Shown here: positions 2,428-64,000 of the stretch, piece by piece
How the letters are laid out: each line of letters begins with the position of its first letter
Numbering within the stretch: position 1 is the first letter of the stretch
Origin: an uncultured Verrucomicrobiota bacterium
GTDB lineage: Bacteria; Verrucomicrobiota; Kiritimatiellia; CAIQIC01; Lenti-01
DNA length: 64,000 nucleotides
Assembly (NCBI GenBank): GCA_964399775.1
Contig: CAYNSH010000001.1
Coordinates: 56,370-120,369 of the forward strand
Reading direction: 5' to 3'
Notes under the pieces: generated by a model
Seen by the model: the letters and a program-made list of their open reading frames with translations, nothing else
Told to the model about the DNA's origin: nothing
Databases searched by the model: none
Translations under genes and position numbers: made by a program

Positions 2428-4308
2428 ATGAACAAGACAAGTCCTGTTTTGAAGAAAGCGGTCGCCGCCGGGCTGGCCGCGCTGGTGTCGATCCCGGTCT
2501 GGGCCGCGCCCCGGACCGGCGAATCGATTGTCGCGGTGCAGACGGGCCGGGCCGAGGCGCGCGTGTTTACCGGCCCGGTGCATGAGGGCCGGACGCAAAA
2601 GCGGAACCTGCACGAGGGGGCATCCGTCGGGGAAACCAGCCAAGTTATGACGGGGCGCGACGGGCGCCTCTGCCTGATCTGCTCGCCCGGGGCCATCTTG
2701 TGCGTGGCACCCAATACCTCGTTCACCTTCGATCAACTTCGGCATACCGCCGACGGGCTGCCGCGCCGCGAAGACGACCTGATTCGCCGCATCCATTTGG
2801 ACCTCCAGCGCGGCCGCATCCGCGTCCAGGCGCCCACGCCGGTGCCCACGCTGGATATCCGCATCACGACACCGGCCGGTCGGATTGAAGCCCAGGGCGG
2901 GGCGTTTGTCGTGGCCCAGGGAAGCGATCGGCGCTGGAACGTCTATTGCGATTCGGACGAATTGACCCTCGTGCCGCGCGATGGCGAGCCCGTTCGCTTG
3001 TCCGCCGGCGATTCCGCGCAGTTCTGGATCAATGAAGACGGCGAAGTGGAAGTGCGCCTGGGCGTTGACGTGGATCCGGATCTGTACCACTTCGAGGTCT
3101 GCAACGCGTTCTTCGAGGATCTGGAGCCGTTCATTGACCAGGAACGCCGCTTCGACCGGGCCGGGTTGGACCGCTACCTGGGCGGCAGCACGCCGATCCA
3201 GGTGCTGGACGACGGAGCGCTGGTCACGGATGTCAGTCCGACCATCCGTCCCTCCGTGGCGGGCCTGACGGTGCCCTCCTTGCCGCCGGGCGGCGGCGAT
3301 GAAGTTGGCGGCCGCTGGGGCGACCAGCGGATCTGGCAGTGGTATGAGCAGATTGGCGTCGTCAAGGGCGTAAACTACATCCCCCGCACCGCGGTCAACT
3401 CCGTCGAGATGTGGCAGCACGACACCTTCGATCCCGAGACCATCGACGAAGAACTCGGCTGGGCCGCCCGCATCGGCTATACGGCCCTCCGCGTCCAGCT
3501 TCAGGTTGCGGTCTGGCAGGACGATTCCAAGGGGTTCCTCGACCGGGTGGACCGGTTCCTCGACCTCGCGGCCAAGCATGGATTGCGAGTCGTTTTGGTG
3601 CTGTTCGACGATCTCGATAGGGCCGGCCAGCCGCCTCAAGTCGGTCCCCAGCCCCCGCCGGTCGAAGGCGAACACAACGCCCGCTGGGTGCCAAGCCCCG
3701 GCGCGGCAGCGGTCAAGGATCGCACCCAATGGGCCGGGCTGGAGCAGTACGTGAAGGACGTGATGGAGAAGTTCAAGCGCGACCGGCGCGTGCTCTACTG
3801 GGACCTCTACAACACGGCCGGCAATGCCGGATTGTGGGAAGATACGCTGCCGCTGCTGGACCAAACCTTCCAGTGGGCGCGCGCGGTCGACCCCTCCCAG
3901 CCCCTGGCCGTGGCGGTCTGGAAGGATTTTGGAAGCGCCATGGCCGCGCGCAAGTTGGAGCGTTCGGACCTGATCACATTCCAGAGCTTCGACAACGTGG
4001 AGAGCATCGAGGCGCGCTTGCTCGCGCTGCAGCGCTATAACCGGCCGATCATCTGCTCGGATTGGCTGATGCGGCAAGTGGGCAACAATTTCGAGAAGGT
4101 GCTGCCGGTGTTCGCCACCTACCGGGTGGGCTGGTTTAACCAGGGGTTGGTCAGCGGCAAAACCCATCGCTTTGTTCAGGACGCGCGCTATCGGGTGGAG
4201 ACCAGCCCCGACGTCTGGCAGCAGGACGTGCTGCAGAAAGATGGAACTCCCTATAGCGAGACGGAAATCGAATTGATCCAGGGATTCCAGTTCCTCGACA
4301 CCCCTTGA
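2428..4308 (+). CDS. Secreted protein with a FecR-like N-terminal domain and a GH5-like (TIM-barrel) glycoside hydrolase domain.
   Basis: Signal peptide MNKTSPVLKKAVAAGLAALVSIPVWAAP. GVNYIPRTAVNSVEMWQ…EELGWAARIGYTALRV are cellulase-family motifs. AAAGG lies upstream of ATG 2428. Confidence 0.6.
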   Translation: MNKTSPVLKKAVAAGLAALVSIPVWAAPRTGESIVAVQTGRAEARVFTGPVHEGRTQKRNLHEGASVGETSQVMTGRDGRLCLICSPGAILCVAPNTSFTFDQLRHTADGLPRREDDLIRRIHLDLQRGRIRVQAPTPVPTLDIRITTPAGRIEAQGGAFVVAQGSDRRWNVYCDSDELTLVPRDGEPVRLSAGDSAQFWINEDGEVEVRLGVDVDPDLYHFEVCNAFFEDLEPFIDQERRFDRAGLDRYLGGSTPIQVLDDGALVTDVSPTIRPSVAGLTVPSLPPGGGDEVGGRWGDQRIWQWYEQIGVVKGVNYIPRTAVNSVEMWQHDTFDPETIDEELGWAARIGYTALRVQLQVAVWQDDSKGFLDRVDRFLDLAAKHGLRVVLVLFDDLDRAGQPPQVGPQPPPVEGEHNARWVPSPGAAAVKDRTQWAGLEQYVKDVMEKFKRDRRVLYWDLYNTAGNAGLWEDTLPLLDQTFQWARAVDPSQPLAVAVWKDFGSAMAARKLERSDLITFQSFDNVESIEARLLALQRYNRPIICSDWLMRQVGNNFEKVLPVFATYRVGWFNQGLVSGKTHRFVQDARYRVETSPDVWQQDVLQKDGTPYSETEIELIQGFQFLDTP

Positions 4309-5606
4309 TGCGACTCTCCGCCTCCATCCGCACCTTGCTGGCGCTGGCCGTCCTGTCGACGCCGTCCATCGGCTTCGCGATCGGCGACAGCTTTTCGGAT
4401 GGGTTCTACACGCGCGGCGTCGAGGCCGCGAGCTACATCGATCAGGGCGGGGCCATCTATGATCCCTTTTACCTCCCGGTCCAGTCGTGGTCGCTCCTGC
4501 CACGCGTGTCCTTGACCGTCACGCACGAGGACAATGTGTTTCTCGAGCCGGAAGATGGCACGGCGAACACATCGGTGGCCCTGGTTCCCGGCCTGTTGGC
4601 GGTCTGGGGCCGGCCGGCGAACAACCACGTCTATGCCGACTACGGCGCCCGCTTCTCGCTGTATGAAAGCGAGGGCGAGGTGAACGACCGTCCCAGCCAC
4701 ATGCTGCGGCTGGGCGCCGTCTATCGCACGGGCAAGAGCCAGATCCAGGCGCAGGCCGGCTTCCGGCATGCGGAGGAAGCCGACGAAGTGCTGGGCGCGC
4801 GCGTGACCAAACGCAATTACAGCCTTGGGCTCGGCGCCGAACACCGGCTCAACGGCAAGAGCAGCCTGGGGCTTCAAGGCAACGTGGAACGCCACGAATA
4901 CGATGCGGAGCGCTACATCGACTACGATCGCATCTATGGCGCCGGACGCTACTACCGCCGCCTGACCCCCAAGAGCCAGGGTTTTGTCCAGGGGGGAATC
5001 GGCCGCGACGAACCGCATCGGTCCGAATATTCCGCCAGCGCCGCGGATTTTTATGACGTGTCGCTGGGGGTGCGCGGCAAGCAGACGCCCAAGATCGGCG
5101 CCGTCGGCCGGGTCGGCTACATGTGGCGGCTCTATGACGATGAGCATCGCGGCGACTACGAAAACTGGGTGGCTTCCTTGCGGGCCAGCAGTTCGCCCTT
5201 CGGTCTGACCACCCTGTCCGCCGAGCTGTATGCCGACATCACTCCGGCGGTCGACGCCGACGGGGTCGATGCGGTCAACCGCGGCTTGACTCTCAAGGCC
5301 AATCGGCGGTTATTCTTTGAACGGCTGCGTGGCAGTGGCTCCTTCACCCTCGGCCAAACGGAATATGTCGGCTTGTCGTCGGGTGCGGATGACGATGCCG
5401 GCACGACCAAGCCTCGCGACGGTCGCACCGACGATTATTGGGGCTTCTCCCTGGGCGTGGATTGGTGGACCAAGAAAAACGTCTCGGTGGGCCTGGCCTA
5501 TTCCTACACGCGCCGGGAGGGCAGCCGGGGCGACGACGCCGAAACACGCCGCGCAACTTCCTACGAATCCGGCCGCTGGACCTTGCGGGTCAGTTGGAAC
5601 TACTAA
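4305..5606 (+). CDS. Outer-membrane beta-barrel protein of the kind associated with polysaccharide export loci.
   Basis: Signal peptide, alternating amphipathic strands, and a C-terminal aromatic end …RVSWNY. ATGA overlap with the upstream gene. Confidence 0.6.
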   Translation: MMRLSASIRTLLALAVLSTPSIGFAIGDSFSDGFYTRGVEAASYIDQGGAIYDPFYLPVQSWSLLPRVSLTVTHEDNVFLEPEDGTANTSVALVPGLLAVWGRPANNHVYADYGARFSLYESEGEVNDRPSHMLRLGAVYRTGKSQIQAQAGFRHAEEADEVLGARVTKRNYSLGLGAEHRLNGKSSLGLQGNVERHEYDAERYIDYDRIYGAGRYYRRLTPKSQGFVQGGIGRDEPHRSEYSASAADFYDVSLGVRGKQTPKIGAVGRVGYMWRLYDDEHRGDYENWVASLRASSSPFGLTTLSAELYADITPAVDADGVDAVNRGLTLKANRRLFFERLRGSGSFTLGQTEYVGLSSGADDDAGTTKPRDGRTDDYWGFSLGVDWWTKKNVSVGLAYSYTRREGSRGDDAETRRATSYESGRWTLRVSWNY

Positions 5607-5651: not shown

Positions 5652-6689
5652 ATGGCCATGAATCCGTTTATGCGAAGAAAAGGCGTGCGCGCCTGGCTGC
5701 TCGGTGCGGCCATCGGGTGGCTGGCGGGCTGCGCCACGCCGGACTTCGGCCCCATGCCGCCAGGCGAGGTGGAGGGTGAGCCGGCGGAGACCCTCGATGC
5801 TTCGCTTCTGTTCCCGGGGGACTACCTCGATTCGCTGTCGAAAGAGGAAGCGGAAGAACCGCTCGGACAGGGCGTCACCCTTCTGCAGGACAAGGACTAT
5901 GTCGCCGCTATTCCCTACCTGGAGCGGGCGCTTCATCGCCAGCCCGAGAATGTACTCATCCTGGAGGCGCTTAGCCTGTGCCTCTATCAAACGGGCCAGC
6001 TGGATCGAATCACCGATCTGTGGGAGCGGCATCTGGAGCAGCAGCCGGACTCCCCAAAAGCCGACGAGTGGCTTGCCCGGGTCCACGAAGCCCGCATCGC
6101 GCCGGCTACCGAGCAAGGCAGGTCGCTGGCCGGGGACGAAGAAATGGCGGAATCCATGCCGCTCGGCGAAGATCCGTATTATTCCGGATATCTGCTCCAG
6201 ACCGGCGACGAGATCGACATCCAGATTTACCGTGAATTGGACCTGTCTGGCCCCTTCCGGATTACGCCCGCGGGCGACATTCGCCATCCGCTGGTGGGCG
6301 CCGTCCCGGTCGCCGGCAAAACCCTCAAGCAGGCGGAAGCCGACTTCACCGCTCTTCTGGCCCGGGATTTCCTCGTCAATCCCCGGGTCATCTTCAAGAT
6401 GCTTTCCACGCAAAGCTCGCAAATCGTCCTCCTGGGCGAGGTGCGCAAGCCCGGTGTGTATCCGCTGCCGGTGGGGGAGCCCATAACTCTGCTGCAGGCG
6501 GTGGCGGGCGCGGGCGGCTTCACCGATCTCGCCAGCCCCGACCGCGTGCGGATCGTTCGCCGTCTGCCGGACGGCCGGACGACCACGATCCGGGTGCGGG
6601 TTTCGCGCCTCCTGTCCGGCCGGGGACGCCAGGAGGACATGACCCTGGAAGCCAACGACGTCATCATGGTGCCGGAAGTGTTGTTTTAA
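5652..6689 (+). CDS. wza: Polysaccharide export lipoprotein, Wza family (Poly_export plus SLBB), with an N-terminal TPR-like segment.
   Basis: Lipobox LAGC. PLVGAVPVAGKTLKQAEADFTALLARDFLVNPRV…VLLGEVRKPGVYPL matches the Wza/GumB family. Confidence 0.75.
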   Translation: MAMNPFMRRKGVRAWLLGAAIGWLAGCATPDFGPMPPGEVEGEPAETLDASLLFPGDYLDSLSKEEAEEPLGQGVTLLQDKDYVAAIPYLERALHRQPENVLILEALSLCLYQTGQLDRITDLWERHLEQQPDSPKADEWLARVHEARIAPATEQGRSLAGDEEMAESMPLGEDPYYSGYLLQTGDEIDIQIYRELDLSGPFRITPAGDIRHPLVGAVPVAGKTLKQAEADFTALLARDFLVNPRVIFKMLSTQSSQIVLLGEVRKPGVYPLPVGEPITLLQAVAGAGGFTDLASPDRVRIVRRLPDGRTTTIRVRVSRLLSGRGRQEDMTLEANDVIMVPEVLF

Positions 6690-6690
6690 C

Positions 6691-8847
6691 ATGCCCGCCT
6701 CCCCCTTCATCGCCACGGAACGCCCCGGCCCCGACGAGCCCGCCAAGTCCTTCGACTGGCGCGAAATGGTGGCCATTGTCATGGAGCGTGCCTGGCTGGG
6801 GGTCGCGGTGTTTGCCGCGGTGTTCCTCTTCTTCACGTTCCAGGCGCGACGCCAGACACCGATTTACCGCAGCACCGCCACCCTGCTGGTGGAAGCGCAG
6901 ATCCCGCGGGTGCTGAACTACCAGGATGTCATGGCCTTCAACCTGCGCAGCCTCGAATATTTCAACACCCACATCAACGCGCTGCACAGCCACACCATGC
7001 TGGAACGGGCGCTCGAGCAAAGCGGACTGGCCGATCATCCGGGATTCTTTCCGGAGATCGAGTCGCGCGCCGGCAAGATCGGCGCGGCCCGCCGGCTGGT
7101 CGCCATTACGCCCATTGAAAAAAGCCGGATGATCCGGATTGTCGTGGAACATCCCGACCCCGCCATCGCCAGCGCCCTGGCCAATGCCATGGCCCGGGCC
7201 TACATCCAGCAGGATCTCGACAACCGCATGGGCACCACGATGGAGGCCGTCGAATGGCTGCGCGCCCGCGCCGAGGAATACCGCGCAAATCTCGAGGCCG
7301 GATTGCTTCAGCTTCAGCAATACCGCGAGGAAACCGGATCGGTCTCGCTCGAGGATGACCAGAATATCGTCATCGAAAAGCTGAAGGCCCTGAACAGCTC
7401 GCTGACGGGCGCGCAAACGGAACGCATTCGGGCCGAAACGGAATGGCAGGCCATTCAATCCCAACTGGCGGATGGGGTCCCGCTGGAGAACATCGTCCCC
7501 CTGCTGGGAGACGGTAGTCTTCAAGAAGCCCTCCGCCGGCTCCAGGAACAGCAGCGCGACGTGGCCCGCCTGCAACAGCGCTATCGCTCACGGCATCCGG
7601 ACTTGGAACAGGCGGTCGAATTGGAACAGAAACTCCAGCACCAGTTCGATCAGGCCGGTAGCAACGCCGTCCATGCCCTCCAAAGCCGGGTGGAGATGTT
7701 GGTGGACCGGGAACGCAACCTTCAGAAGGCGCTTCGGGAGCAGGAACAGGAAGCGTTCGATCTCGACCGGAAATTAGTCCGCTACAACGAACTCAAGCGC
7801 AACGTCGAAGCTGACCAAAGCATCCACCAGGCCGTCATTGCCCGCATGCGCGAAACCAGCATGTCGGAATCGACCCCGTCGGAAATCATCCGCCTGGCCG
7901 AAGAGGCCAGCCCGGGCCGGGTGCCGGTGCGTCCCAACTTGCGGCGGGAAATGATGCGCGGCGCCTCGTTCGGACTGGTGCTCGGGTTTGGCGCCATCTT
8001 CCTGTTCTACTACCTGGACCATCGCTTCCGCCGCAACGAAGAGGTCGAACGGTTGCTGGGCATTCCCGTCGTGGCCACCGTTCCCTTGATTACCGGCAAA
8101 ACGATTGCGGACCGCAGTACCGTGGCGGACCGCAAGCCTTCCGGCGAGGAAGCCGAAAGTTTTCGGACGCTTCGCGCCAGCCTGCTGTTGCGCGACGAGG
8201 TTCGCAAAGCCAAGGTTCTGATGATCACGAGTTCCGGCCCCGGCGACGGCAAGTCGCTGGTGGCCTCCAATCTGGCGATCAGCCTCGCGCAAGATGGTCG
8301 CCGGGTCCTGTTGGTGGGATGCGATCTGAGGCGCCCAATCTTGGATCGGGTATTTTCCGCCCCCTCCGATAAGCCGGGGCTCTCCGAGGTGCTGAAGGGC
8401 CAGGTGTCCTGGCCGGAGGCCTTGCGCCGCCAGGTGTTTATTCATCTCGACCTGCTGTCTTCCGGCTCGATTCCCTCCCACCCGTCGGAACTGCTGGGCA
8501 AACGCGCGTTCGTAGACCTGCTGGCCGAAGCGCGGGAGTTGTATGACCACGTGTTGATCGATGCGCCGCCAGTGCTGGGCGTGAGCGATGCGCTCGTCCT
8601 GCTGCCCAACATGGATGGCGTGTTGTTCATCGTGCGCTACGGCGCCACCCATAGCCTGGGCGCCAAGCATGCCATGGTCAAAATCCAGGCCAGCGGGACG
8701 CCCTGCCTGGGATGCGTCATGAACGGGGTCAATCTCAAATCCCTGGCCAACTACTACTACTATCGCCGCTACGGGGGCTATGCGTACCAACAGTACCAGG
8801 CTCACCCCTCCGCCCTCGGAGAAGCGGACCATCGCACCGAATCATGA
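6691..8847 (+). CDS. wzc: Polysaccharide co-polymerase / BY-kinase (Wzc/EpsB family, PCP-2a).
   Basis: N-terminal TM and Wzz-like domain with coiled coil. Walker A ITSSGPGDGKSLVASNLA, DxD, and a C-terminal Tyr-rich tail YYYYRRYGGYAYQQYQ. Confidence 0.8.
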   Translation: MPASPFIATERPGPDEPAKSFDWREMVAIVMERAWLGVAVFAAVFLFFTFQARRQTPIYRSTATLLVEAQIPRVLNYQDVMAFNLRSLEYFNTHINALHSHTMLERALEQSGLADHPGFFPEIESRAGKIGAARRLVAITPIEKSRMIRIVVEHPDPAIASALANAMARAYIQQDLDNRMGTTMEAVEWLRARAEEYRANLEAGLLQLQQYREETGSVSLEDDQNIVIEKLKALNSSLTGAQTERIRAETEWQAIQSQLADGVPLENIVPLLGDGSLQEALRRLQEQQRDVARLQQRYRSRHPDLEQAVELEQKLQHQFDQAGSNAVHALQSRVEMLVDRERNLQKALREQEQEAFDLDRKLVRYNELKRNVEADQSIHQAVIARMRETSMSESTPSEIIRLAEEASPGRVPVRPNLRREMMRGASFGLVLGFGAIFLFYYLDHRFRRNEEVERLLGIPVVATVPLITGKTIADRSTVADRKPSGEEAESFRTLRASLLLRDEVRKAKVLMITSSGPGDGKSLVASNLAISLAQDGRRVLLVGCDLRRPILDRVFSAPSDKPGLSEVLKGQVSWPEALRRQVFIHLDLLSSGSIPSHPSELLGKRAFVDLLAEARELYDHVLIDAPPVLGVSDALVLLPNMDGVLFIVRYGATHSLGAKHAMVKIQASGTPCLGCVMNGVNLKSLANYYYYRRYGGYAYQQYQAHPSALGEADHRTES

Positions 8848-10193
8848 TGCGCCTGATGTCTTCAGTCCGGTTGCTCTTGCTGCTGGGTTTGATGGGAGCA
8901 TGCGTGGGGCCCCTGCCCATTCCCGATCCCGGGCGTATCTGGGTCGTCCCCATTCTGGCCGTGCTGGCCGGCGCCGGTTTGCTGGTGGATCGCCGTCTGC
9001 CCGCCCGGATCTGGGCCGCCGCCGCCGCCGTTCTCGGGTTGCTGGCGCTGTATGCGGCCAACCCCTCCCACCGCTGGGCCGATGGAATCGGCTTGCTGCC
9101 CATCGACCATTGGACGGTTCTGCCCGCCGCCGCTTTTCGGGCGGGCGCCTGGCAGGTCATGACCTTGGCCACCGGCTTGTTGGCGGCGTATGCCTTGGCC
9201 TTTCGGCTTTCCGCCCGCCAGCGGCAAGCGCTGCTGGTCATCGCGACGGCCGGCGCCGTGGCCATGGCCATCGGGGTTTGGATTCAGCGGCTCGAGCCGC
9301 GTCGCCATCCGATCTATGAGCTGACCGGCGTTTTTGTGAATGAAAACCACTTTGCGGTGTTTGCCAACCTGCTATTGCCCGGGGTGCTGGCGCTGGCTTC
9401 GCGCGCACGGTTTCGGGCGGTTCAGTCGGGTAGCCTGTCGAGCCCGGCGGGACTCTTTTGGTTGTCCGGCGTGCTGCTGGCTGGCGCGGTGGTCCTGAGC
9501 CGGTCCCGGGCCGGCGTGGCTGTGATGGCCCTGCTGGTGTTGCTTCATGTTTGGCGCTGCCGGCGCCTGGTTCGGCAGTTTCCCTTCATGGATACGCCGG
9601 CCGCCGCCCGGTGGCGCGGTCTGGGCTGGTTGGCGGTTGCGGGCGCCGCGGCACTCGCGCTCGCCACCTTGACTCGTGAGTGGCGCTCAACGGGGGATCT
9701 TGTGCGGGAAGGGCATTTCCGCCTCGGCATGGCGAGGGATACCCTCCACATGTGGCGCGACCAGCCGACATGGGGCATCGGCCCGGGATCCTTTACAACG
9801 GTGTTTCCGTACTACCAATCGGACCTGTTTCGCGGCCGAACAATCCTGCATGCGCATTCCGAGCCGGTCCAGACGCTGTCCGAATACGGCTGGGCCGGCG
9901 TGCTCTGGTTGGCTGGCTTCGTGGGGCTGGCCCTGTCGGCCCGTCCTCGCGGCAACCCTCCTTCCGCAAATGGGGCGGCCGAAATCCCCGCCTTTGCCGA
10001 TCTGGAGCGTTCCGCGCTCGCGGCGGGCCTGTTGGCTCTGGTGCTTCACAGTTTAATCGACTTCCCCCTGCGCATCCCGCTGATCACAATGATCGCCGCG
10101 ACCTGGGCCGGCTTGTGGGCCGCCAGCCGCCCGCGGGAGGGCGCAGGCATCCCCGGGGATGCCGAACCGTCAACGGGAGGACCGTCGACATGA
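8844..10193 (+). CDS. O-antigen ligase / Wzy-like polymerase family membrane protein.
   Basis: Multipass membrane protein with the Wzy_C-like loop …LSRSRAGVAVMALLVLL…. The start is at codon 45 of ORF 8712, where ATGA overlaps the wzc stop. Confidence 0.6.
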   Translation: MMRLMSSVRLLLLLGLMGACVGPLPIPDPGRIWVVPILAVLAGAGLLVDRRLPARIWAAAAAVLGLLALYAANPSHRWADGIGLLPIDHWTVLPAAAFRAGAWQVMTLATGLLAAYALAFRLSARQRQALLVIATAGAVAMAIGVWIQRLEPRRHPIYELTGVFVNENHFAVFANLLLPGVLALASRARFRAVQSGSLSSPAGLFWLSGVLLAGAVVLSRSRAGVAVMALLVLLHVWRCRRLVRQFPFMDTPAAARWRGLGWLAVAGAAALALATLTREWRSTGDLVREGHFRLGMARDTLHMWRDQPTWGIGPGSFTTVFPYYQSDLFRGRTILHAHSEPVQTLSEYGWAGVLWLAGFVGLALSARPRGNPPSANGAAEIPAFADLERSALAAGLLALVLHSLIDFPLRIPLITMIAATWAGLWAASRPREGAGIPGDAEPSTGGPST

Positions 10194-11037
10194 AACCGTC
10201 GAGTAGATCCCAGCGGCCGATCGAGGTGGTGCGGCGGCCTCGGCACGGATGGTTTGACCTGGCGCTGGGCGAACTCTGGGCCTATCGCGACCTGCTGGGA
10301 ACGCTGGTCTGGCGCAACCTGACCGTGCGCTACAAGCAGAGCGTGATCGGCATTGCCTGGGCCATCCTCAAACCCGTCATGCAGATGATCGTTTTCAGCG
10401 TGGTGTTCGGCCGCCTGGCCAACCTGCCGTCGGACGGCATGCCCTATCCGATCTTCCTCTATGCCGGCCTGCTGCCGTGGACCTATTTCACCTCCACCAT
10501 CACCAGCGCCTCCGGCAGCCTCATCGGCGGCGGCAACATGATCAACAAGGTCTATTTTCCCCGCATGATCCTGCCGTTCTCCTATCTCTTCACCGGGCTG
10601 ATCGACTTGGCGCTGTCCATGCTGGTCCTGTTCGGGATGATGGCATGGTATCGCGCCGAGATGGTCTTCGGCCTGCAGATGCTGCTGTTTCCCGTGTTCC
10701 TGCTGCCGGCCATCGCCTTCGCCGGCGGCCTGTCGCTGTGGCTTAGCGCCACCGCCGTGCGCTATCGCGACATCCACCACCTGGTCCCGTACCTGCTCCA
10801 GATCGGCATGTTCGTCACGCCCGTGGTCTATGCCGTCAAGCTGCTGCCCGCGCGGTTCCAATGGCTGCTGCAGCTCAACCCTATGACCGGCGTCGTCGAA
10901 GGCTTCCGCTGGGCCCTGCTGGGCAAGCCCGTGCAAGGGTGGGGCATGATGGGCGCGGGCTTCCTGATTTCGCTCCTGCTGCTGTTTTCCGGAATGGTCT
11001 ATTTCCGGCGCGTGGAACGCACCGTGGCGGACATCAT

Positions 11038-12309: not shown

Positions 12310-13331
12310 GCGCGTCGTCAGGCCTCGTTGCCGTCCTCACCACGATCCAGCCGCCCACGCCGGCCGTGCGCGAACTGCATCGACGGCTGGCGGAATCCGG
12401 CGGCCGCCTCGTCGTGGCTGGCGATCAGAAGGGTCCCGCCGCGTTTGATCTGCCCGATTGCGATTTTCTCAGCCTGGCCGACCAGCAATCCAGCGGGTTC
12501 GCTCTGGCGGAAAAGTTGCCGGTGGGCCACTACGCCCGCAAGAACATCGGCTATCTCCATGCCATCCGCGCCGGCGCGGCGTGCCTCTACGAAACCGACG
12601 ACGACAATGCGCCCCTGCCGGGGTGGGCGCCGCGCACCGAAATTGTGGACCATGCCCGGCGCATTTCCGGTTCGGGTTGGGTGAACGCGTATCGCCACTT
12701 CGCCGAGGATCCGCAAATTTGGCCCCGCGGCTTTCCCTTGGAACAACTGAATTCCATCATTCCATCATTCCATCATTCCATCCTCTCAGCCTCTCCTCTC
12801 CGCGCACCCATCCAGCAGGGGTTGGTCAATGGATCGCCCGACGTGGATGCCGTCTGGCGGCTGACGCAGGACCGCCCGTTTGATTTTGACGAAGCCGCGC
12901 CCCTTTGGCTCGGCCCGGGCCAATGGTGCCCGTTCAATACCCAAAGCACGTGGTGGTGGCCCGCCGCCTATCCGCTACTCTATGTGCCGAGCCACTGCTC
13001 CTTTCGCATGTGCGACATCTGGAAAAGCTTCATCGCCCAGCGCTGCCTGTGGGCCATGGGCTGCGGCGTGGTGTTCCATCCGCCCGAGGTGCTTCAGGAC
13101 CGCAACCCCCACGATTATCTCCGCGATTTCCAGGACGAGGTTCCCGGCTACCTCCAAAATGCACGCATCGCCGAGATTCTCTCCGGCCTGGAACTGGCCG
13201 AAGGCGAGGGGGCCGTGGCGGACAATCTCTTGGCCTGCTACCGAGCCTTGATCCAAGAGACTGTTTTTCCCCCCGAAGAATGGACGCTGGTCAAGGCTTG
13301 GGTGCGGGATGGCTTCACCAGATCACCTTGA
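12306..13331 (+). CDS. DUF288/STELLO-like putative glycosyltransferase-family protein. Carries an in-frame (ATTCCATC)4 repeat insertion (12751-12803).
   Basis: HYARKNIGYLHAIRAGAACLYETDDDN…WWWPAAYPLLYVPS. ATGA overlap with wzt. The internal octamer repeat encodes SIIPSFHHSILSASPL. Confidence 0.45.
12751..12803 (+). repeat. (ATTCCATC)4 plus a CT-rich tract, embedded in-frame in the CDS.
   Basis: Direct tandem octamers seen in sequence, from the same ATTC-core family as the intergenic arrays. Confidence 0.8.
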
Positions 13332-17035: not shown

Positions 17036-18343
17036 ATGAACGCCGAACAACAAAAACTAGTGGCCCAGCTCTGGCAGGAGCGCCCTAAACTCTATGTGCA
17101 TGGTGCGGGGACGGGATGCGTGGATTTGACCGGACAGGACGGCAAGGAGGAGGCCTGGCCGCTCTCGCCGGACGTGCTCAACTGGATGGCGGAGGTGGTC
17201 GCGCCGGGAGCCGTCACGCTCGAAACCGGCTGCGGCTATTCCACCATGTTGTTCGCCATTCTCGGCGCCCGGCATACCGCCATCGCGCCAGACTACCAGC
17301 AACATGGACGTATCACCGGCTGGTGCGAACGTCACGGCGTTTCCTGCGGCAACCTGCGCTTGATTGATGCCTGTTCGCAGGACGTGCTGCCGGGGCTGGC
17401 GCTCGACCCCCTGGATCTGGTGCTCATTGATGGTAGCCACGCATTCCCGGCGCCCTTCATCGATTGGTATTACACCGCCGAAAAACTCAAGCCGGGCGGA
17501 ATCCTCATCGTGGATGACTGCCATCTGGTGACCGGGAAAATCCTGGCCGATTTCCTCGAAGCGGAGAATGGACGCTGGGAATTGGTGCGTCGATTCGGCA
17601 AGACGAGCGTGTTCCGCAAGATCGCTGCCAATCCTGTGGTGGCGGGTTTTGAGTGGATCGATCAACCCTACTGCGCCAAGCGGCTGGGCGCTCCCCCCCC
17701 GCAGGGGCTTCGTGCCCGCCTGCGGCGGATGCTCCAGCCGCTGGGCCGGTTGAACTCCCAGCACTATCTCGCCTATCGCCTGGGCTTGGCGCGGCCGCGC
17801 ACCGAAACCACCGCCGCGGAACGCGCCTGCCTCCATCGCCATGCGGCCGGCCGGAAACGCCTGGCGGAAATTGGCGTCTTCCAGGGCGTCAACACGAAAG
17901 CCTTTCGCCAGGCGATGGCTTCCGACGGCGTGATCCTCGCGGTGGATCCCTTTCCGCGCTCCTTTTTTGGCATCCGCGGCTTTGGCTGGGCACGCCGCAT
18001 CGCCCACCGCGAAGTCGGCTTGGTCCCCAACGGCCGCGTGGTTTGGCTTGAATGCCGCGGCCAGGATGCGCCGGTCGCCGCGGCGGCTCGCCCGTTTCTG
18101 CCGGTGGATTTTCTGTTCATCGATGGCGACCACGGCTACGAGGGCCTGCGCGGCGACTGGGAAGCCTGGAAGGATCACATTGCGCCGGGCGGCATCGTCG
18201 CCCTGCACGATTCTCGCAACCGCCGCGGACGTGGCGCCGAGCGCTTCACCCATGAGGTGATTCGCCAGGACCCGGATTTCGTCCTGCTCGAGGAAGTGGA
18301 TTCCTTGACCGTCCTGCGCCGGCGTGGGCCCGAGGAAAGCTGA
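17036..18343 (+). CDS. Tandem class I SAM-dependent methyltransferase (two TylF/Methyltransf_24-like domains).
   Basis: LETGCGYST…LIDGSHAF appears in the first half and IDGDHGYEGLRGDWEAW…ALHD in the second half. Confidence 0.6.
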   Translation: MNAEQQKLVAQLWQERPKLYVHGAGTGCVDLTGQDGKEEAWPLSPDVLNWMAEVVAPGAVTLETGCGYSTMLFAILGARHTAIAPDYQQHGRITGWCERHGVSCGNLRLIDACSQDVLPGLALDPLDLVLIDGSHAFPAPFIDWYYTAEKLKPGGILIVDDCHLVTGKILADFLEAENGRWELVRRFGKTSVFRKIAANPVVAGFEWIDQPYCAKRLGAPPPQGLRARLRRMLQPLGRLNSQHYLAYRLGLARPRTETTAAERACLHRHAAGRKRLAEIGVFQGVNTKAFRQAMASDGVILAVDPFPRSFFGIRGFGWARRIAHREVGLVPNGRVVWLECRGQDAPVAAAARPFLPVDFLFIDGDHGYEGLRGDWEAWKDHIAPGGIVALHDSRNRRGRGAERFTHEVIRQDPDFVLLEEVDSLTVLRRRGPEES

Positions 18344-46540: not shown

Positions 46541-47251
46541 ATGGAAACGGCTGAAAGCCTGCGGGGGAAGGTGGCGCTGGTGACGGCCGGCGCCCGGCGC
46601 ATCGGGGCGTCCATCTGCCGCGAGCTGGCGGCGCGCGGCGCCAGCGTGGTTGTGCATTACCACCACTCCGAGGGCGAGGCGCTCGCGTTGAACCGCTCGC
46701 TGGGTCGCGGCGTGTTTTCGGTGCGCGGCGACCTGTCCACCGCCCAGGGCTGCGAATGGGTCTTCCACGAAGCCGTCGAATGGATGGGGCGGGTGGATAT
46801 TCTGGTCAACAACGCCTCGCTTTTCGCCCGCGACGGCGAAATGGAGCCGCCGGCCCTGCGCGCCATCAACGTCGAGGCTCCCCTGCACCTCGCGGGGAGG
46901 GTGGCCGCGCAACCGTCCGGCGGATGCGTCATCCATCTGCTCGACAGCCGCATCGCCCGCGCGGAACCAGGCGGTTTCTCCGCCTACGCCGCGACCAAGC
47001 GCGAACTGGCCGAGTCGGTGCCGCGCTGCGCCCGCGAATGGGCCCCGCGCGTCCGCGTCAACGGCGTCGCCCCCGGCCCCGTCCTGGCGCCGGAAGGCGT
47101 CCGCGAACCCGCCGGCGACCTCCCCCTCGGGCGGCGACCCGATCCCGAAGACGTCGCCCGCGCCGTCGCGTTTCTTGCCGAAGCCGGCGCCGTTACCGGT
47201 CAAATCCTGTTTGTCGACGGCGGGCAGCATCTGGGGAATAAGCTGGAATGA
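46541..47251 (+). CDS. SDR-family oxidoreductase.
   Basis: GKVALVTAGARRIGASI (TGxxxGxG-like) and NNAS…YAATK are the catalytic YxxxK elements. Confidence 0.75.
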   Translation: METAESLRGKVALVTAGARRIGASICRELAARGASVVVHYHHSEGEALALNRSLGRGVFSVRGDLSTAQGCEWVFHEAVEWMGRVDILVNNASLFARDGEMEPPALRAINVEAPLHLAGRVAAQPSGGCVIHLLDSRIARAEPGGFSAYAATKRELAESVPRCAREWAPRVRVNGVAPGPVLAPEGVREPAGDLPLGRRPDPEDVARAVAFLAEAGAVTGQILFVDGGQHLGNKLE

Positions 47252-47295
47252 TGGAATGTGGGAATGCTGGAATGTGGGAATGATGGAATAATGGA
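47252..47295. repeat. (TGGAATGN)n tandem array, the GGAAT orientation of the ATTCC family.
   Basis: gatggaatgtgggaatgctggaatgtgggaatgatggaataatgg. Confidence 0.75.
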
Positions 47296-47304
47296 TTGCT
47301 GAAA

Positions 47305-47952
47305 ATGCGAAAGACCCGGGCAGTCGCAACATACGAAGAGATACCCATCCAGGACCGCATCCTGACCCTCCGCGGGGAGAAGGTCATGCTGGATACGGAC
47401 TTGGCGGAACTTTACGGCGTTGCCACCAAGGTTTTGAACCAGGCCGTGAAGCGAAATACCGATAAATTTCCGGCCGACTTCATGTTTCAGCTTACACCGC
47501 AGGAGATTGCGGTCTTGAAGTCACAAATTGTGACTTCAAGTTTTGGATACATGCGGACGCAAACTAAGTCCGCATCAGGTCACGGTGGCCGAAGGAAAAT
47601 ACCGTTTGCTTTCACCGAGCATGGGGCGATCATGGCGGCGACAGTGCTGAACAGCCCGCGGGCCGTTCAAATGAGCGTGTTCGTGGTTCGGGCGTTTGTT
47701 CGCATGCGCGCGGCTTTTTCGGACACGACGGCGCTGGCGCGCAAGCTGGCCGAGCTGGAGCGCGAGGTGAAGGCCCGGCTCGATACCCACGATACCGCCA
47801 TCATAGATATCCTGCGCCGGTTCATGGAACTCCTCGATCCGCCGGTCCCCCCTGATCCCCCGCCGAAGCCCATCGGCTTCGGCGTGAAGGAAAAGCCGGG
47901 AAGCTACCGGACGCGAAAGACAGCAGGCGGTAAGCGGCAGGTGGTAGAATGA
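47305..47952 (+). CDS. ORF6N-domain protein (KilA-N-related DNA-binding protein, often linked to mobile elements).
   Basis: IPIQDRILTLRGEKVMLDTDLAELYGVATKVLNQAVKRNTDKFPADFMFQLTPQE. Confidence 0.7.
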   Translation: MRKTRAVATYEEIPIQDRILTLRGEKVMLDTDLAELYGVATKVLNQAVKRNTDKFPADFMFQLTPQEIAVLKSQIVTSSFGYMRTQTKSASGHGGRRKIPFAFTEHGAIMAATVLNSPRAVQMSVFVVRAFVRMRAAFSDTTALARKLAELEREVKARLDTHDTAIIDILRRFMELLDPPVPPDPPPKPIGFGVKEKPGSYRTRKTAGGKRQVVE

Positions 47953-47987
47953 GCGCAATCCCGGCGATGAAGGCAGTCGATGAACAT

Positions 47988-48112
47988 TTTCCACGGCGTG
48001 GAAAACAGTTTTCCACAGCGTGGAAAAATCCGCGAACAGTTTTCCATGGCGTGGAAAAAAACGGCGAAAGTTTTCCACGGCGTGGAAAACAGTTTTCCAT
48101 AGCGTGGAAAAC
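47988..48112. repeat. Array of five 19-20-bp palindromes TTTTCCAYRGCGTGGAAAAM (cluster A).
   Basis: Five copies with 2-11 nt spacers. Each resembles two inverted DnaA-box-like 9-mers (TTTTCCACA/G). Confidence 0.85.
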
Positions 48113-51109: not shown

Positions 51110-53674
51110 ATGAAGATCCATGACTTTTTAAAGACGAATCGCCTGCTGGTGGACGGGGCGATGGGCACGCAGATCCAGAACCGCCATCCGGGGGCGGCGG
51201 CTTGGGGCGAGTACGAGGGCTGCAACGAGTGGCTGAATTTGACGGCGCCGGAGATCATCCGCGACATCCACCTGGGCTATTTCCGAGCCGGCAGCGACGC
51301 GGTGGAGACCAACAGCTTCGGTTCGTCGCCGATGACGCTGGGGGAGTATGACCTGAGCGCGCGGGCGAAGGAGATTTCGCGGGCGGCGGCGGAGATCGCG
51401 CGCGGCGCGGCCGACGCGGCGCAGGCGGAGGACGGGCGTCCGCGGTTTGTGCTGGGTTCGGTGGGGCCGGGAACCAAGCTGGCCACGCTGGGGCAGGCGA
51501 GCTATGACGACCTCTACGGGGGCTATCAGGAGCAGATGGGCGGGCTGCTGGAGGGCGGGGCGGATGGGCTCATTATCGAAACCTGCCAGGACCTCTTGCA
51601 GATCAAGGCGGCGGTGGGGGCGGCCATGGCTTTGCTGGGCGGGAGCCGCGACAAGCTGCTGTATGTGTCGGTGACGGTGGAAACGACGGGGACGCTGCTG
51701 GTGGGGTCGTCCATCTGGGCGGTGCTGGCGGCGCTGGAGCCGTACCCGATTGATGTGCTGGGGATGAATTGCGCGACGGGGCCGGAGGCCATGCAGCGGC
51801 ATCTGGAGGCGATCGCCCGCCAGTGGCGGGGGAGGATCGGCTGCATGCCGAACGCGGGTCTGCCCACGCTGAAGGACGGCCAGGTGCATTATCCGCTTGG
51901 CCCGGTCGAATTCGCCCAGGTGTTTGCGCCGATGGTGAAAGCGATCGGCCTGAACGTGGCGGGGGGCTGCTGCGGGACGACGCCGGAGCATATCCACGCC
52001 CTGCGCGAAGCGCTGGGCGACCCCGGCGCCCCCGCGGCTCGGGAGGCCATCGCGCCCGAGCAGGTGTGCAGTCTGTTTTCGCCGATGGACCTGGCGCAGG
52101 AGCCCCCGCCGCTCTACGTGGGCGAACGGGCGAATGCCACGGGCTCCAAAAAATTCCGCGAGGCGCTCTTGGCGGAGCGGCTGGACACGGCCTTCGACCT
52201 GCTGACGGAGCAGGACGAGGGGGTGGCGCATGTGCTGGACCTGAGCGTGGCCTACGCCGGGCGCGACGAGCTGGCGGATATGACGACGCTGGTGGCGCGC
52301 GCCGCCCGTGAGTGCCGCCTGCCGCTCATGGTGGACAGCACGCAGCTGGACGTGGTCGAGGCGGCGCTGAAGCTGTACGGCGGCCGGATGCTGATCAATT
52401 CGATCAATTTCGAGTCGGGCGAGGAAAAGGCCGAAAAGCTGGTGGCGCTGGCGCGACAGTTCGGGGCCGGCCTGGTGGCGCTGACCATCGACGAGGTGGG
52501 CATGGCCATGACGGCCGACCGCAAGGTGGAGATCGCCCGGCGCCTGGTGGACTTCTGCGTGCACCGCGGGATGCGCCCCGGCGACCTGCTGATTGATACG
52601 CTGACGTTCACGGTCGGCAGCGGCGACCCCTCGCTCAAGTCCGCCGCGGTCGAGACGATCGCGGCCATCCGGCGCATCAAGGCCGAAATTCCCGGCGTGC
52701 GGACGCTGCTGGGACTTTCCAATATCTCCTTCGGCTTGAAGCCAGCGGCGCGCAAGGTGCTCAATACGCTGTTCCTGGACCGCTGCATCAAGGCGGGCCT
52801 GGATGCGTGCATTATCAATACGGCGACGCTGGTGCCGCTGACCGACCTGCCCGCCGAGTCGGTCGAGCTGGCCGCGAAGCTGCTCGACAACGACGCGTCC
52901 AACGGCGATCCGCTGGAAAACTACATTCAACACTTCGAGGCGGCGGTGCCCGAGGAAGAGGCGGGCGCGGCCGGGGCGATCCTGTCGCCGGAGGAACAGG
53001 TGCAGGCGGCCCTGGTCAAGGGCAAGGCCGCCCTGCTGGAAACCTCCATCCCCGCGCTGCTGGAGAGGATGGCGGCGGAGGACGTGCTGAACAACCACCT
53101 GATCCCGGGCATGAAGGAGGTCGGGCGGCTGTTCAACGACGGCATTCTGCAGCTTCCGTTCGTGCTGAAGTCGGCCGAGGTGATGAAAAAGGCCGTTGCG
53201 ATGATCAAGCCCTTCCTGAAGGCCGGGGAGGCGAAGGCGGCCGGCACGCTGGTGATCGGCACCGTGGCGGGCGACGTGCACGACATCGGCAAGAACCTGG
53301 TGGACATCATTCTGTCCAACAACGGCTACCGGGTGGTGAACCTCGGGGTCAAGGTGCCCATCGAGAAAATGCTCGCGGCGGTCAAGGAGTCCAACGCCGA
53401 CATGCTGGGGATGAGCGGCCTGCTGGTGAAGTCGGTGCAGGTGATGCGCGAAAACCTCAAGGCGATGGAAACGGCGGGGCTGAAGATCCCGGTGCTGCTG
53501 GGCGGCGCCGCGCTGACGGACGATTTTGTCCTGAAGGACTGCCAGCCGGCCTATTCGGGACCGGTGCGCTACTGCAAGGACGCCTTTGACAGCATTACGT
53601 GCTTCCGCGAGCTGGAGGAGACGGGCCGCCTCGCGCCGTCGCCGCCCTACCAGGCCAAACCGGCGCAAACTTGA
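51110..53674 (+). CDS. metH: Cobalamin-dependent methionine synthase MetH lacking the C-terminal activation domain (Hcy-binding, pterin-binding and B12-binding modules).
   Basis: DGAMGT, GGCCGTTPEHI, pterin-binding and B12-binding motifs including GTVAGDVHDIGKNLV. 854 aa, where full-length MetH is about 1200 aa. Confidence 0.85.
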   Translation: MKIHDFLKTNRLLVDGAMGTQIQNRHPGAAAWGEYEGCNEWLNLTAPEIIRDIHLGYFRAGSDAVETNSFGSSPMTLGEYDLSARAKEISRAAAEIARGAADAAQAEDGRPRFVLGSVGPGTKLATLGQASYDDLYGGYQEQMGGLLEGGADGLIIETCQDLLQIKAAVGAAMALLGGSRDKLLYVSVTVETTGTLLVGSSIWAVLAALEPYPIDVLGMNCATGPEAMQRHLEAIARQWRGRIGCMPNAGLPTLKDGQVHYPLGPVEFAQVFAPMVKAIGLNVAGGCCGTTPEHIHALREALGDPGAPAAREAIAPEQVCSLFSPMDLAQEPPPLYVGERANATGSKKFREALLAERLDTAFDLLTEQDEGVAHVLDLSVAYAGRDELADMTTLVARAARECRLPLMVDSTQLDVVEAALKLYGGRMLINSINFESGEEKAEKLVALARQFGAGLVALTIDEVGMAMTADRKVEIARRLVDFCVHRGMRPGDLLIDTLTFTVGSGDPSLKSAAVETIAAIRRIKAEIPGVRTLLGLSNISFGLKPAARKVLNTLFLDRCIKAGLDACIINTATLVPLTDLPAESVELAAKLLDNDASNGDPLENYIQHFEAAVPEEEAGAAGAILSPEEQVQAALVKGKAALLETSIPALLERMAAEDVLNNHLIPGMKEVGRLFNDGILQLPFVLKSAEVMKKAVAMIKPFLKAGEAKAAGTLVIGTVAGDVHDIGKNLVDIILSNNGYRVVNLGVKVPIEKMLAAVKESNADMLGMSGLLVKSVQVMRENLKAMETAGLKIPVLLGGAALTDDFVLKDCQPAYSGPVRYCKDAFDSITCFRELEETGRLAPSPPYQAKPAQT

Positions 53675-53709
53675 AACTGGAAACTGGAAACTTGGAAAAA
53701 AGGGGGTAG

Positions 53710-53840
53710 GGTTCCACGCTATGGAAAACAGTTTTCCACAGTATGGAAAAAAGTGGCGCCGGTTTTCCACGGCATGGAAAATCCGTACGCTTTTTTTCCA
53801 CGGCATGGATCCGGCATCTGCCGGACCACAGCATGGAAAA
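53710..53840. repeat. Array of about five TTTTCCACRGYATGGAAAA palindromes (cluster B), partly degenerate.
   Basis: Same family as 47988-48112. Lies between metH and the activation-domain gene. Confidence 0.8.
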
Positions 53841-53928
53841 CCCGGGACGAGGGCGTCCCGGCTCCAGAACGCGGGACGAGGGCGTCCCGGCTCCAACTGA
53901 CCTCTGAACCCCGACCCCCCAAACCGCC

Positions 53929-62537: not shown

Positions 62538-62648
62538 TTCCATCCCAACATTTTACCATTCCACCATTCCACCATTCCACCATTCCAATATCCCAATATT
62601 CCATCATTCCATTCCTCCAGTATTCCCTCTCCCCATCCCCCCCCCCCC
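62538..62648. repeat. (ATTCCAC)4 / ATTCCAT heptamer array ending in a C12 homopolymer that abuts the exonuclease ATG.
   Basis: ccattccaccattccaccattccaccattccaatatcccaatattccatcattccatt…cccatcccccccccccATG. Confidence 0.8.
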
Positions 62649-63614: not shown

Positions 63615-63947
63615 ATGAAGCGAATACACGGGATGCTCTTGACTCTGGCAATCCTTGGCGCCGTCGGCGTGGCCTTCGCGGCGGTCACCTGCGAAACCGT
63701 CAAAATGAACGACCAAACCTGTGGCGCGCAGATGTGGCAGTGCAACCAGTGCGGCGCGGTCGGCTGCGACGATCTTTCGCGGGAATGCCCCGCCCTGCTC
63801 CAGGATCTCCATGCCGCGGAACGCCAGTGCGTCTATTGCGGCAGCAACGACTGGGCACCCCTCGAAGCGCCCGTCCCCGAAGCCCCGGACCCCGCCGAGT
63901 TGAACGGTTTCCATGGCGTGGAAAATTCCCCCCAAAGTTTTCCATAG
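63615..63947 (+). CDS. Small secreted Cys-rich protein. The C-terminal codons and the stop lie inside palindrome array C.
   Basis: Signal peptide MKRIHGMLLTLAILGAVGVAFA. About 10 Cys. AAGGAA upstream. Confidence 0.4.
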   Translation: MKRIHGMLLTLAILGAVGVAFAAVTCETVKMNDQTCGAQMWQCNQCGAVGCDDLSRECPALLQDLHAAERQCVYCGSNDWAPLEAPVPEAPDPAELNGFHGVENSPQSFP

Positions 63948-64000
63948 CGTGGAAAAATGACGAAAAAGTTTTCCATGGCGTGGAAAACTGCCCTTGGATA
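63907..64000. repeat. Array of three or more TTTTCCATRGCGTGGAAAA palindromes (cluster C), truncated by the window end.
   Basis: Same family as clusters A and B. Confidence 0.8.

Follow-up and report, generated by a model that had tools for sequence, protein, structure and literature searches.

The persistence of repetitive extragenic palindromes (REPs) and of bacterial interspersed mosaic elements (BIMEs) is debated, with selfish spread on one side and a function in the host on the other. BIMEs of E. coli are bound by the host proteins IHF, gyrase and Pol I. REP superfamilies are defined by GTAG or CGTC tags, and REPs within genes are also known (PMC3733652). For the terminal inverted repeat-associated tyrosine transposases (TIRYTs), which have a helix-turn-helix (HTH) related to the box-binding domain of DnaA, the DNA target of the HTH was described as unknown, since the terminal inverted repeats (TIRs) show no likeness to DnaA boxes (Quentin et al. 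2018, PMC6006769). Here we describe a family of 19-bp palindromes that forms three arrays within 64,000 nt of an uncultured Verrucomicrobiota bacterium (Kiritimatiellia; CAIQIC01; Lenti-01; contig CAYNSH010000001.1, nt 56,370-120,369), the whole of which is called the window below, and that recurs in related genomes. Since the same unit is found in about two dozen species, in phased arrays, in perfect form inside a protein-coding loop, and in decay in one sub-lineage, the family provides an unusually clean test of this debate.

We consider the arrays, with a probability of roughly 0.58, to be a lineage-specific REP/BIME-like family, with likeness also to the Rickettsia palindromic elements (RPEs), the arms of which would be read by a putative homodimeric protein that binds double-stranded DNA (dsDNA) and has been lost in some lineages. 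A REP-like family bound by a dimeric protein other than DnaA was among the possibilities raised in an earlier, sequence-only reading of the window, and is the one favoured by the evidence given below.

Structure of the palindromic units and arrays

Each unit is 19 bp long. Its 7-bp arms, TTTTCCA and TGGAAAA, are invariant and enclose a 5-bp centre, Y-R-S-Y-R, which varies almost only by transitions and so keeps two symmetric pyrimidine-purine steps. Across 385 units, information is confined to the 19-bp core while the flanks carry none, which excludes the arrays being parts of some larger repeat or insertion sequence. More than 90% of TTTTCCAC half-sites lie in strict 9-1-9 palindromes. Departures from the consensus within the arms are uncompensated (e.g. 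G.A 23 and T.C 21 versus G.C 1, although the arms are too invariant to give this comparison power), and at positions 8/12 an A opposite C is commoner than an A opposite T (31 versus 13).

Within arrays, the distance from centre to centre is 22 bp in 91 cases and 31 bp in 114, with minor classes at 30/32, 41-43 and 51 bp, so that unit centres are spaced by about 2, 3, 4 or 5 helical turns. These distances correspond to linkers of 3 or 12 nt, with occasional ones of about 22-24 or 32 nt, and not to the continuous range of 2-11 nt previously reported for the window. The central base (G or C) sets the orientation of a unit, and a weak consensus of the 12-nt linker, A-Y-C-G-C-G-A-A-A-A-A-G, depends on this orientation. 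The junctions obey rules, "-+" occurring at 22 bp (31 versus 4) and "+-" at 31 bp (15 versus 3), and oriented arrays mostly begin with the spacing 22,31,31. The arrays are therefore mosaics, as BIMEs are, in which oriented units are combined with few kinds of linker, but the units are mostly direct and not alternating. Array orientation correlates weakly with local GC skew (56 versus 30, p 0.007).

The window itself has 13 copies of TTTTCCA-YRSYR-TGGAAAA, grouped as arrays A1 (nt 47987-48111), A2 (nt 53710-53840) and A3 (nt 63907-63987), the same three clusters that had been recognised in the sequence-only reading. With up to two mismatches allowed, the pattern TTTCCAYRGCRTGGAAA gives 22 strand-matches in the window against 0.03 expected from shuffles, and the looser core TTCCAYNNNRTGGAA, with up to one mismatch, gives 12 against 0.30, all of them inside A1-A3. 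Array A1 (+ strand) has five intact units (nt 47987-48005, 48009-48027, 48040-48058, 48071-48089 and 48093-48111), all with the central G on the + strand, at distances of 22/31/31/22 and joined, in order, by the linkers cag, atccgcgaacag, aaacggcgaaag and cag. The five units of A2 (+ strand) are spaced 22/31/31/28. The first of them (nt 53710-53728) is inverted (- strand) and weak, with GG in its left arm, the second and third follow at nt 53732-53750 and 53763-53781, and the last two are degenerate in the right arm (nt 53794-53812) and the left arm (nt 53822-53840), respectively. Array A3 (+ strand) has three units spaced 31/31 (nt 63907-63925, 63938-63956 and 63969-63987). Its copy number had been given as three or more, and three is correct; there is no fourth, as a contig of the same strain (L118) shows that the array ends at this point, followed by (ATTGAAT)x4.

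Distribution among related genomes

In a species-representative genome collection, exact copies of the motif are present on at least 115 stretches, so it is far from being confined to the window. Among the matches listed, arrays of two or more units occur in at least about 24 species-level metagenome-assembled genomes (MAGs), often on many contigs of the same MAG, and the array-bearing MAGs are labelled Kiritimatiellia, Verrucomicrobia, Lentisphaerae or Opitutia; outside these groups the matches listed include only single chance copies, in 10 other taxa. Where arrays are present they are found about once per 10-20 kb. There are many per MAG, the window alone having three in 16 kb, and the 19-bp unit is in this respect a short palindrome with many copies per genome, as is typical of REPs and BIMEs. 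No Rfam family matched at gathering thresholds.

The IMG/VR viral contigs gave 16 matches, all of them single chance copies, and this, together with the housekeeping type of the genes in the window (chromosomal DNA of 65% GC), led to the rejection of a phage or plasmid origin. CRISPR arrays have repeats of 24-48 bp and unique spacers of about 26-72 bp, and were likewise rejected, as the linkers here are 3 or 12 nt and no cas genes are nearby. Contigs of the same strain recovered from five samples are 99.99-100% identical to one another and give no information on strain-level polymorphism.

Arrays at orthologous sites

A metagenome scan with the PilM-like protein of the window recovered 57 syntenic loci (related-genome and metagenome loci carry L-numbers in what follows, and TatD homologues P-numbers). 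At the site between metH and the gene for the MetH activation domain, arrays are present in the window (five units), L130/L159 (four) and L166 (three). At the site between the exonuclease and Dpy19-like genes they are present in the window (three units), L130 (four), L166 (three) and L135 (two). Both sites are empty in L128/139, L134 and L145, and loci L122-126, which hold the first site only, have no array there. Comparison with relatives thus shows the arrays to be patchy, and in the PilM tree carriers and non-carriers are interspersed. The orthologous arrays of the window, L130 and L166 agree in their arms and in the 22/31 spacing, but their linkers and centres can no longer be aligned.

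The distribution is very clumpy: even in array-positive genomes there are no intergenic arrays in the 20 kb around tatD. Calling genomes array-free from Poisson density was for this reason dropped as a strong claim, but two observations are unaffected, the concurrent lack of arrays at both orthologous sites and the decay in place that is described in the next section.

Units within coding sequences

The unit is free of stop codons in all frames, and most arrays that were first called inside ORFs proved to be artefacts of this. Two cases were confirmed by Pfam domains: in L009, an ABC permease has three units in a periplasmic loop, with domains on either side, and L031 has two units in a loop of TatD, where the complete TatD domain spans the insert. 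A search for homologues of the latter found 120 proteins (65-97% identity), and in 118 of these the loop contains the unit-encoded peptide FSTxWKKxFHxVE[NK]. Loop lengths fall into classes that correspond to 1, 2, 4 or 5 units, and a few versions have decayed. In-frame palindromic insertion into conserved genes recalls the RPEs, although this is an analogy only, without sequence relation.

The DNA of eight tatD orthologues was compared. Perfect units are present in L031, L195 and L204 (two each), and in L199 and L205, which have five each at 22/31/31/22, the same spacing as A1. The arms in the loop use TTT, AAA and GAA codons despite a gene G+C content at third codon positions (GC3) of 0.75-0.86. 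Between L199 and L205, all 70 of 70 arm positions are identical, compared with 57% at 4-fold third positions and about 50% in the linkers. Perfect arms that run against the codon bias, in sequences whose silent sites are saturated, indicate a constraint on the arms at DNA level that is independent of coding. In the sub-clade L197/L202/L200, L197 has kept one unit intact, L202 has a pair that is half decayed, and in L200 a pair has decayed fully; decay is toward GC-rich codons, and there is no other array in those loci. The constraint is therefore present in most lineages and released in some.

The TatD loop has also taken up other repeats in nested fashion and is a hotspot for such insertion. 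Unrelated inserts of at least three further kinds lie exactly between or beside palindrome units (in P0066, P0086, P0096 and P0101; P0090-P0115; and P0079, P0084 and P0094), with the peptides "...IAECRAQADRRRANARSIAPRECAASEGA...", "...SDPHGLAPWVNQ...PRSPTAQGGGGP..." and "...GQRPGLQPIPAAGFAVARGADPG...". In L197, where tatD has one perfect unit, a GTAG-type REP has inserted next to it, and such REPs seem to land beside palindrome units.

Position relative to genes

Gene calls based on GC3 place the intergenic arrays in 45 tandem, 10 divergent and 6 convergent contexts, against a background of 72%, 14% and 14%. Arrays are thus mainly extragenic and found in every intergenic type, with a few confirmed in-frame intragenic cases, and their orientation agrees with transcription as often as it disagrees (19 each). 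In the 45 co-directional contexts, the median gap to the preceding stop codon is 36 nt and that to the following start codon 42 nt. The sequence-only reading placed all three window arrays immediately downstream of a stop codon, and this is accurate as far as it goes, since A1 and A2 begin 35 nt past the ORF6N and metH stops and A3 overlaps a stop, but the next start codon is equally near (29 nt for A1). A convergent case was verified by Pfam in L076, where a chromate-transporter gene and a sigma-54 response-regulator gene have their stops 131 bp apart and an array of five units takes up this gap.

All-against-all clustering of the ORFs of the loci found no protein family recurrently beside arrays, and the neighbours are functionally diverse. 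The ORF6N-domain protein encoded next to A1 was considered as a binder or mobiliser and rejected, as tblastn finds it near no arrays in 115 other loci and its adjacency is a coincidence; as a neighbour of arrays it is peculiar to this genome. Scans for promoters and terminators around the arrays gave nothing convincing. Among the loci examined, no gene is bracketed by arrays except a TIRYT gene in L113, and there the bracketing units belong to a 138-bp duplication.

Possible function of the arrays

Several features point to recognition of dsDNA by a dimer: the two-fold symmetry of the unit, the centre that changes only by transitions, spacing at the helical repeat, in-place conservation limited to the arms, and the occurrence of arrays in divergent regions at background frequency. 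That the form recognised is dsDNA rather than a hairpin is suggested by the uncompensated arm changes, the pairing of over 90% of half-sites, and again the helical spacing. A homodimeric, sequence-specific protein would bind each unit, its two monomers contacting one arm each, and the two pyrimidine-purine steps would make the centre deformable. Phased units would seat several dimers on one face of the helix, giving a nucleoprotein platform of about 60-240 bp, which may serve, like the BIMEs of E. coli, in structuring the chromosome or in its topology, rather than in transcription or its control or as an origin. Most of the clade would have the protein, with units decaying where it was lost, and unit number in genes changes over time, as with RPEs. 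New copies may arise by local duplication of units or through an enzyme that acts in trans. The contrast between intact and decayed lineages makes such a reader findable by phylogenetic profiling and testable by pull-down.

Some points weigh against this interpretation. Protein binding is inferred from constraint, symmetry and phasing; arms that hardly vary leave the test for covariation with little power, and an enzyme reading a hairpin of single-stranded DNA (ssDNA) may be responsible instead; and a spacing of 22 bp misses two full helical turns by about 1.5 bp. Known REP superfamilies carry GTAG or CGTC tags and the unit has neither, and in about 1.5 Mb of loci no gene for a REP-associated tyrosine transposase (RAYT) flanked by units was found, so that "REP-like" refers to behaviour and not to proven membership. 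Finally, selection would have to maintain hundreds of sites in place.

That the units could be substrates of a Y1 (HUH) enzyme of RAYT/TIRYT type, acting in trans on ssDNA hairpins, is an unlikely alternative; they would then be selfish or domesticated REPs without site-specific host function or, in a variant, the TIRYT HTH would read their DnaA-box-like arms. Four TIRYT-class genes (Y1_Tnp, an IS200-like domain, plus a C-terminal HTH like DnaA domain IV, with sub-threshold matches to Bac_DnaA_C and TIGR00362) were found, all in array-positive genomes (L065, nt 4382-5359, - strand; L109, nt 6190-7245, - strand; L113, nt 316-1374, - strand; L130, nt 221-1228, + strand), and the palindromes behave as mobile ones do, with in-frame insertion, changes in copy number, patchiness, co-location with GTAG-type REPs and an orientation that weakly tracks GC skew. 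The TIRYT of L113 even lies between two copies of the 138-bp repeat, each ending in a unit. However, this is the only gene so bracketed, and the three TIRYTs whose flanks were examined (L065, L109 and L113) are each enclosed by inverted repeats of 23-29 bp which, in L065 and L113, start with GGGGTCAG, match the published TIRYT signature GGGGWSAS, and are unlike the palindrome. A density of 4 genes in about 850 kb versus 0 in about 450 kb is not statistically informative, and with their own GGGGTCAG TIRs and counts too small to show an association the TIRYTs were rejected as cognate transposases. In a by-eye alignment, the box-reading DnaA residues P423, D433, H434, T435 and H439 are not conserved in the TIRYT HTH. 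Transposition also leaves unexplained the perfect arms that remain in place beside diverged linkers at orthologous sites, as well as the helical-repeat spacing, for which ssDNA hairpins have no reason. More broadly, it is improbable that the arrays are the dsDNA target of any HTH of the DnaA-domain-IV type, be it that of the TIRYTs or of DnaA itself; they do offer a candidate target for the orphan DnaA-like HTH of these transposases and, if this were true, head-to-head mimics of DnaA boxes would couple a mobile or domesticated element to the replication initiator or fork across the clade. As for DnaA, the arrays were at first suspected to be datA-like sites, and the units, as pairs of head-to-head boxes, would either titrate the protein or remodel it in the manner of the DnaA-reactivating sequences (DARS), tying initiation to many sites; this too is improbable. 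Box spacing in the DnaA-oligomer arrays of oriC is about 10-12 bp, as is the distance between half-site centres here, and in DARS the opposite orientation of boxes matters. A universally conserved reader would account for the deep in-place conservation of the arms, and cyanobacteria and Deinococcus do use TTTTCCACA as a DnaA box (PMC4674748, PMC7988490). Among 754 half-sites in related loci, TTTTCCAC(A/G) fits the consensus TTWTNCACA exactly in 18%, with one mismatch in 54%, and with two or more in 28%. In the window, two of 26 half-sites are exact, as had been noticed (the left half of unit TTTTCCACAGCGTGGAAAA, nt 48009-48027, + strand, and nt 53732-53740, with no further exact ones), and 16 differ at one position, but the claim that all are within one mismatch fails for the other 8. 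In 54% of units, the left half-site has T at position 8, where C is critical, and neither solo boxes nor the canonical TTATCCACA, which is at chance level, are enriched. DnaA binds asymmetric boxes as a monomer and needs no palindrome, yet over 90% of half-sites exist only as strict 9-1-9 palindromes. Nor are there few clusters per chromosome conserved among relatives; the arrays are numerous, occur within genes as well, and are missing or in decay in close relatives, each of which must have DnaA. Absence of a dnaA gene from the window was confirmed by tblastn and extends to all of the loci examined, and a role in replication or DnaA titration is not supported.

Action in RNA, with the units forming hairpins that are bidirectional terminators, 3'-end stabilisers or processing sites, roles which have been reported for some E. 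coli REPs, is very unlikely. The arrays do begin just past stop codons, the degenerate motif is fully symmetric and so gives the same hairpin from either strand, the TTTT of the next unit after a 3-nt linker makes a marginal terminator-like pattern, and whole arrays fold with z-scores of -7.8 and -9.0. Single hairpins are weak, however (-4.5 to -6.9 kcal/mol; 3-4 GC pairs in a stem of 8), and lead into A-tracts instead of U-tracts; no compensatory changes were seen in the near-invariant arms, Rfam has no match, divergent intergenic regions have arrays at background frequency, and helical-repeat spacing is meaningless for RNA. Five-unit arrays inside the tatD frame, upstream of co-directional ROK and patatin genes, show that they are not efficient terminators, so the suggestion of cruciform terminators or insulators made from the sequence fares no better. 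The same intragenic copies, together with the array between convergent stops in L076, contradict the idea of a transcription factor that uses the arrays as operators or enhancer-like sites to control the operons after them (among these the PPDK-like, metH activation-domain and Dpy19-like ones), which is the remotest of the possibilities considered. All three window arrays are upstream of + strand genes, and phased palindromes resemble the operator arrays of ArgR, Lrp or NrdR, but the neighbouring genes are too diverse in function for a regulon, A1 ends 29 nt before a start codon and so leaves no room for a promoter, and no sigma-70-like promoter is enriched near arrays. A REP/BIME-like family read by a dimeric protein remains the preferred explanation.

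Genes and other repeats around the arrays

The genes preceding A1 encode a lactate/malate dehydrogenase-like protein, an AMP-binding enzyme, an SDR and an ORF6N-domain protein, and A1 is located between the last of these (stop at nt 47952) and a PPDK_N-like gene (start at nt 48141), after which comes a split MetH. A2 is between metH (stop at nt 53674) and the MetH activation-domain gene (start at nt 53929). The latter is followed by an Amuc_1100/1102-PilM-secretin cluster, a 5'-3' exonuclease gene and a small Cys-rich ORF, and beyond A3 are genes for Dpy19-like, CoaE and Rho proteins, the first of which starts ~125 nt past the array, outside the end of the window.

The small Cys-rich ORF (nt 63615-63947; 110 aa), between the exonuclease gene and A3, has a weak, sub-threshold match to DUF6520 and no tblastn match in any syntenic relative. 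Units 1-2 of A3 provide its last ~13 codons and the stop, as had been observed, and it is a gene that is specific to the lineage and has been extended into the array, or else no real gene. Public gene calls also place a 40-aa "gene" over A1 (L116, nt 8942-9064, and L117, nt 3604-3726, equivalent to about nt 47949-48071 of the window). Spurious ORFs across arrays are to be expected from a unit without stop codons, and annotators of Kiritimatiellia MAGs should expect both these and "FSTAWKK/FHSVEN" inserts in real proteins. The ORF6N-domain gene (nt 47296-47952) has a GC3 below that of its neighbours, is directly preceded by a TGGAATGA array, and contains in its coding sequence a perfect palindrome with a 12-bp stem, CTTGAAGTCACA-AAT-TGTGACTTCAAG (hairpin at nt 47514-47540); it may have been acquired recently.

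The intergenic regions of arrays also hold other repeat families. A composite element occurs twice in the window (nt 742-868 and 1670-1792), beginning with 5-6 heptamers of TTCAATA/ATTCAAT, then about 20 nt, a GC-rich palindrome GGCGCGCTGG(C/T)(C/T)CAGCGCGCC, and four copies of TTCGACA/ATTCGAT. Heptamer arrays of the ATTCAAT type also follow A3 (L118, nt 10385-10415) and are present in the array-free relative L134 (nt 7540-7590). A second family adjoins A2 (nt 53839-53895), where the GC-rich hairpin GGGACGAGGGCGTCCCGG is found twice in a 29-bp tandem; related copies in L113 (nt 185-245), which start with GGTAGGGCG..., look like GTAG-type REP/REPIN elements. Three octamer tandems, TGGAATGA x6.5 (nt 47244-47295), CCATTCCA x9 (nt 62540-62611) and ATTCCATC x4 (nt 12751-12782), all contain TGGAAT/ATTCCA, one base from the arm sequence TGGAAA/TTTCCA. 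Just 5' of A2, a heptamer array AAACTGG x4 (nt 53667-53698) overlaps the metH stop, and as it is kept at the same place in L130 (nt 8222-8245; MetH 84% identical) it is either old or under a constraint of its own. In several relatives, start codons are directly preceded not by an obvious Shine-Dalgarno sequence but by heptamer-like tracts that are C-rich and purine-poor (CTGAACCC / GAACCCT repeats; window, nt 53896-53928; L122, nt 2715-2770; L130, nt 18150-18185).

Comparison with known systems

The palindrome family behaves as REPs and BIMEs do but is without the GTAG/CGTC tag, one of their defining features. Common to both are short, high-copy palindromes that are almost all extragenic, occur in all intergenic types, form mosaics of oriented units with few fixed-length linkers, are patchy between related species and occasionally intragenic, and share their genomes with Y1 transposase genes. 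In contrast, the unit TTTTCCAYRSYRTGGAAAA and its unconserved flanks lack the tag, its arms are AT-rich in a 65% GC genome whereas REP stems are usually GC-rich, and its units are mostly direct where those of E. coli BIMEs alternate. Also different are the helical-repeat spacing, the single consensus for about 24 species, the preservation of arms in place across saturated divergence, and the lack of a cognate RAYT in the 1.5 Mb or so of loci. With RPEs and intragenic REPs the family shares in-frame palindromic DNA in surface loops (TatD, ABC permease) that is translated and retained through speciation, but RPEs are single elements of 100-150 bp, compared with the 1-5 units of 19 bp with 3- or 12-nt linkers described here, and the arms of the palindrome stay constrained after insertion instead of drifting with the host gene.

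Clusters of 9-mers like TTWTNCACA outside oriC are also found in datA and DARS1/2 of E. coli and in the DnaA-box clusters (DBCs) of B. subtilis, and DARS likewise have oppositely oriented boxes and a half-site spacing of about one helical turn. Those clusters are few per genome, conserved in position, and made of asymmetric boxes in varied arrangements, unlike the many strict 9-1-9 arrays of this family, with their mostly imperfect boxes, intragenic copies and presence or absence among relatives. TIRYTs (Di Nocera 2013; subclass 2.1 of Quentin 2018) occur in the same genomes as the arrays, have an HTH related to the box-binding domain of DnaA, and include some TIR families that are also dispersed as dimers or clusters, but those of the present genomes are flanked by GGGGTCAG-type TIRs and not by the TTTTCCA palindrome, and no physical or statistical link to the arrays was found. 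The ARG boxes of ArgR, the sites of Lrp/FFRP proteins and the NrdR boxes belong to promoters of a defined regulon, whereas this family has no promoter association, far more sites, and copies within genes. They nonetheless provide the closest physical analogy, as their palindromes are two, three or four helical turns apart, several dimers are placed on one face, and the multimers wrap or bend DNA.

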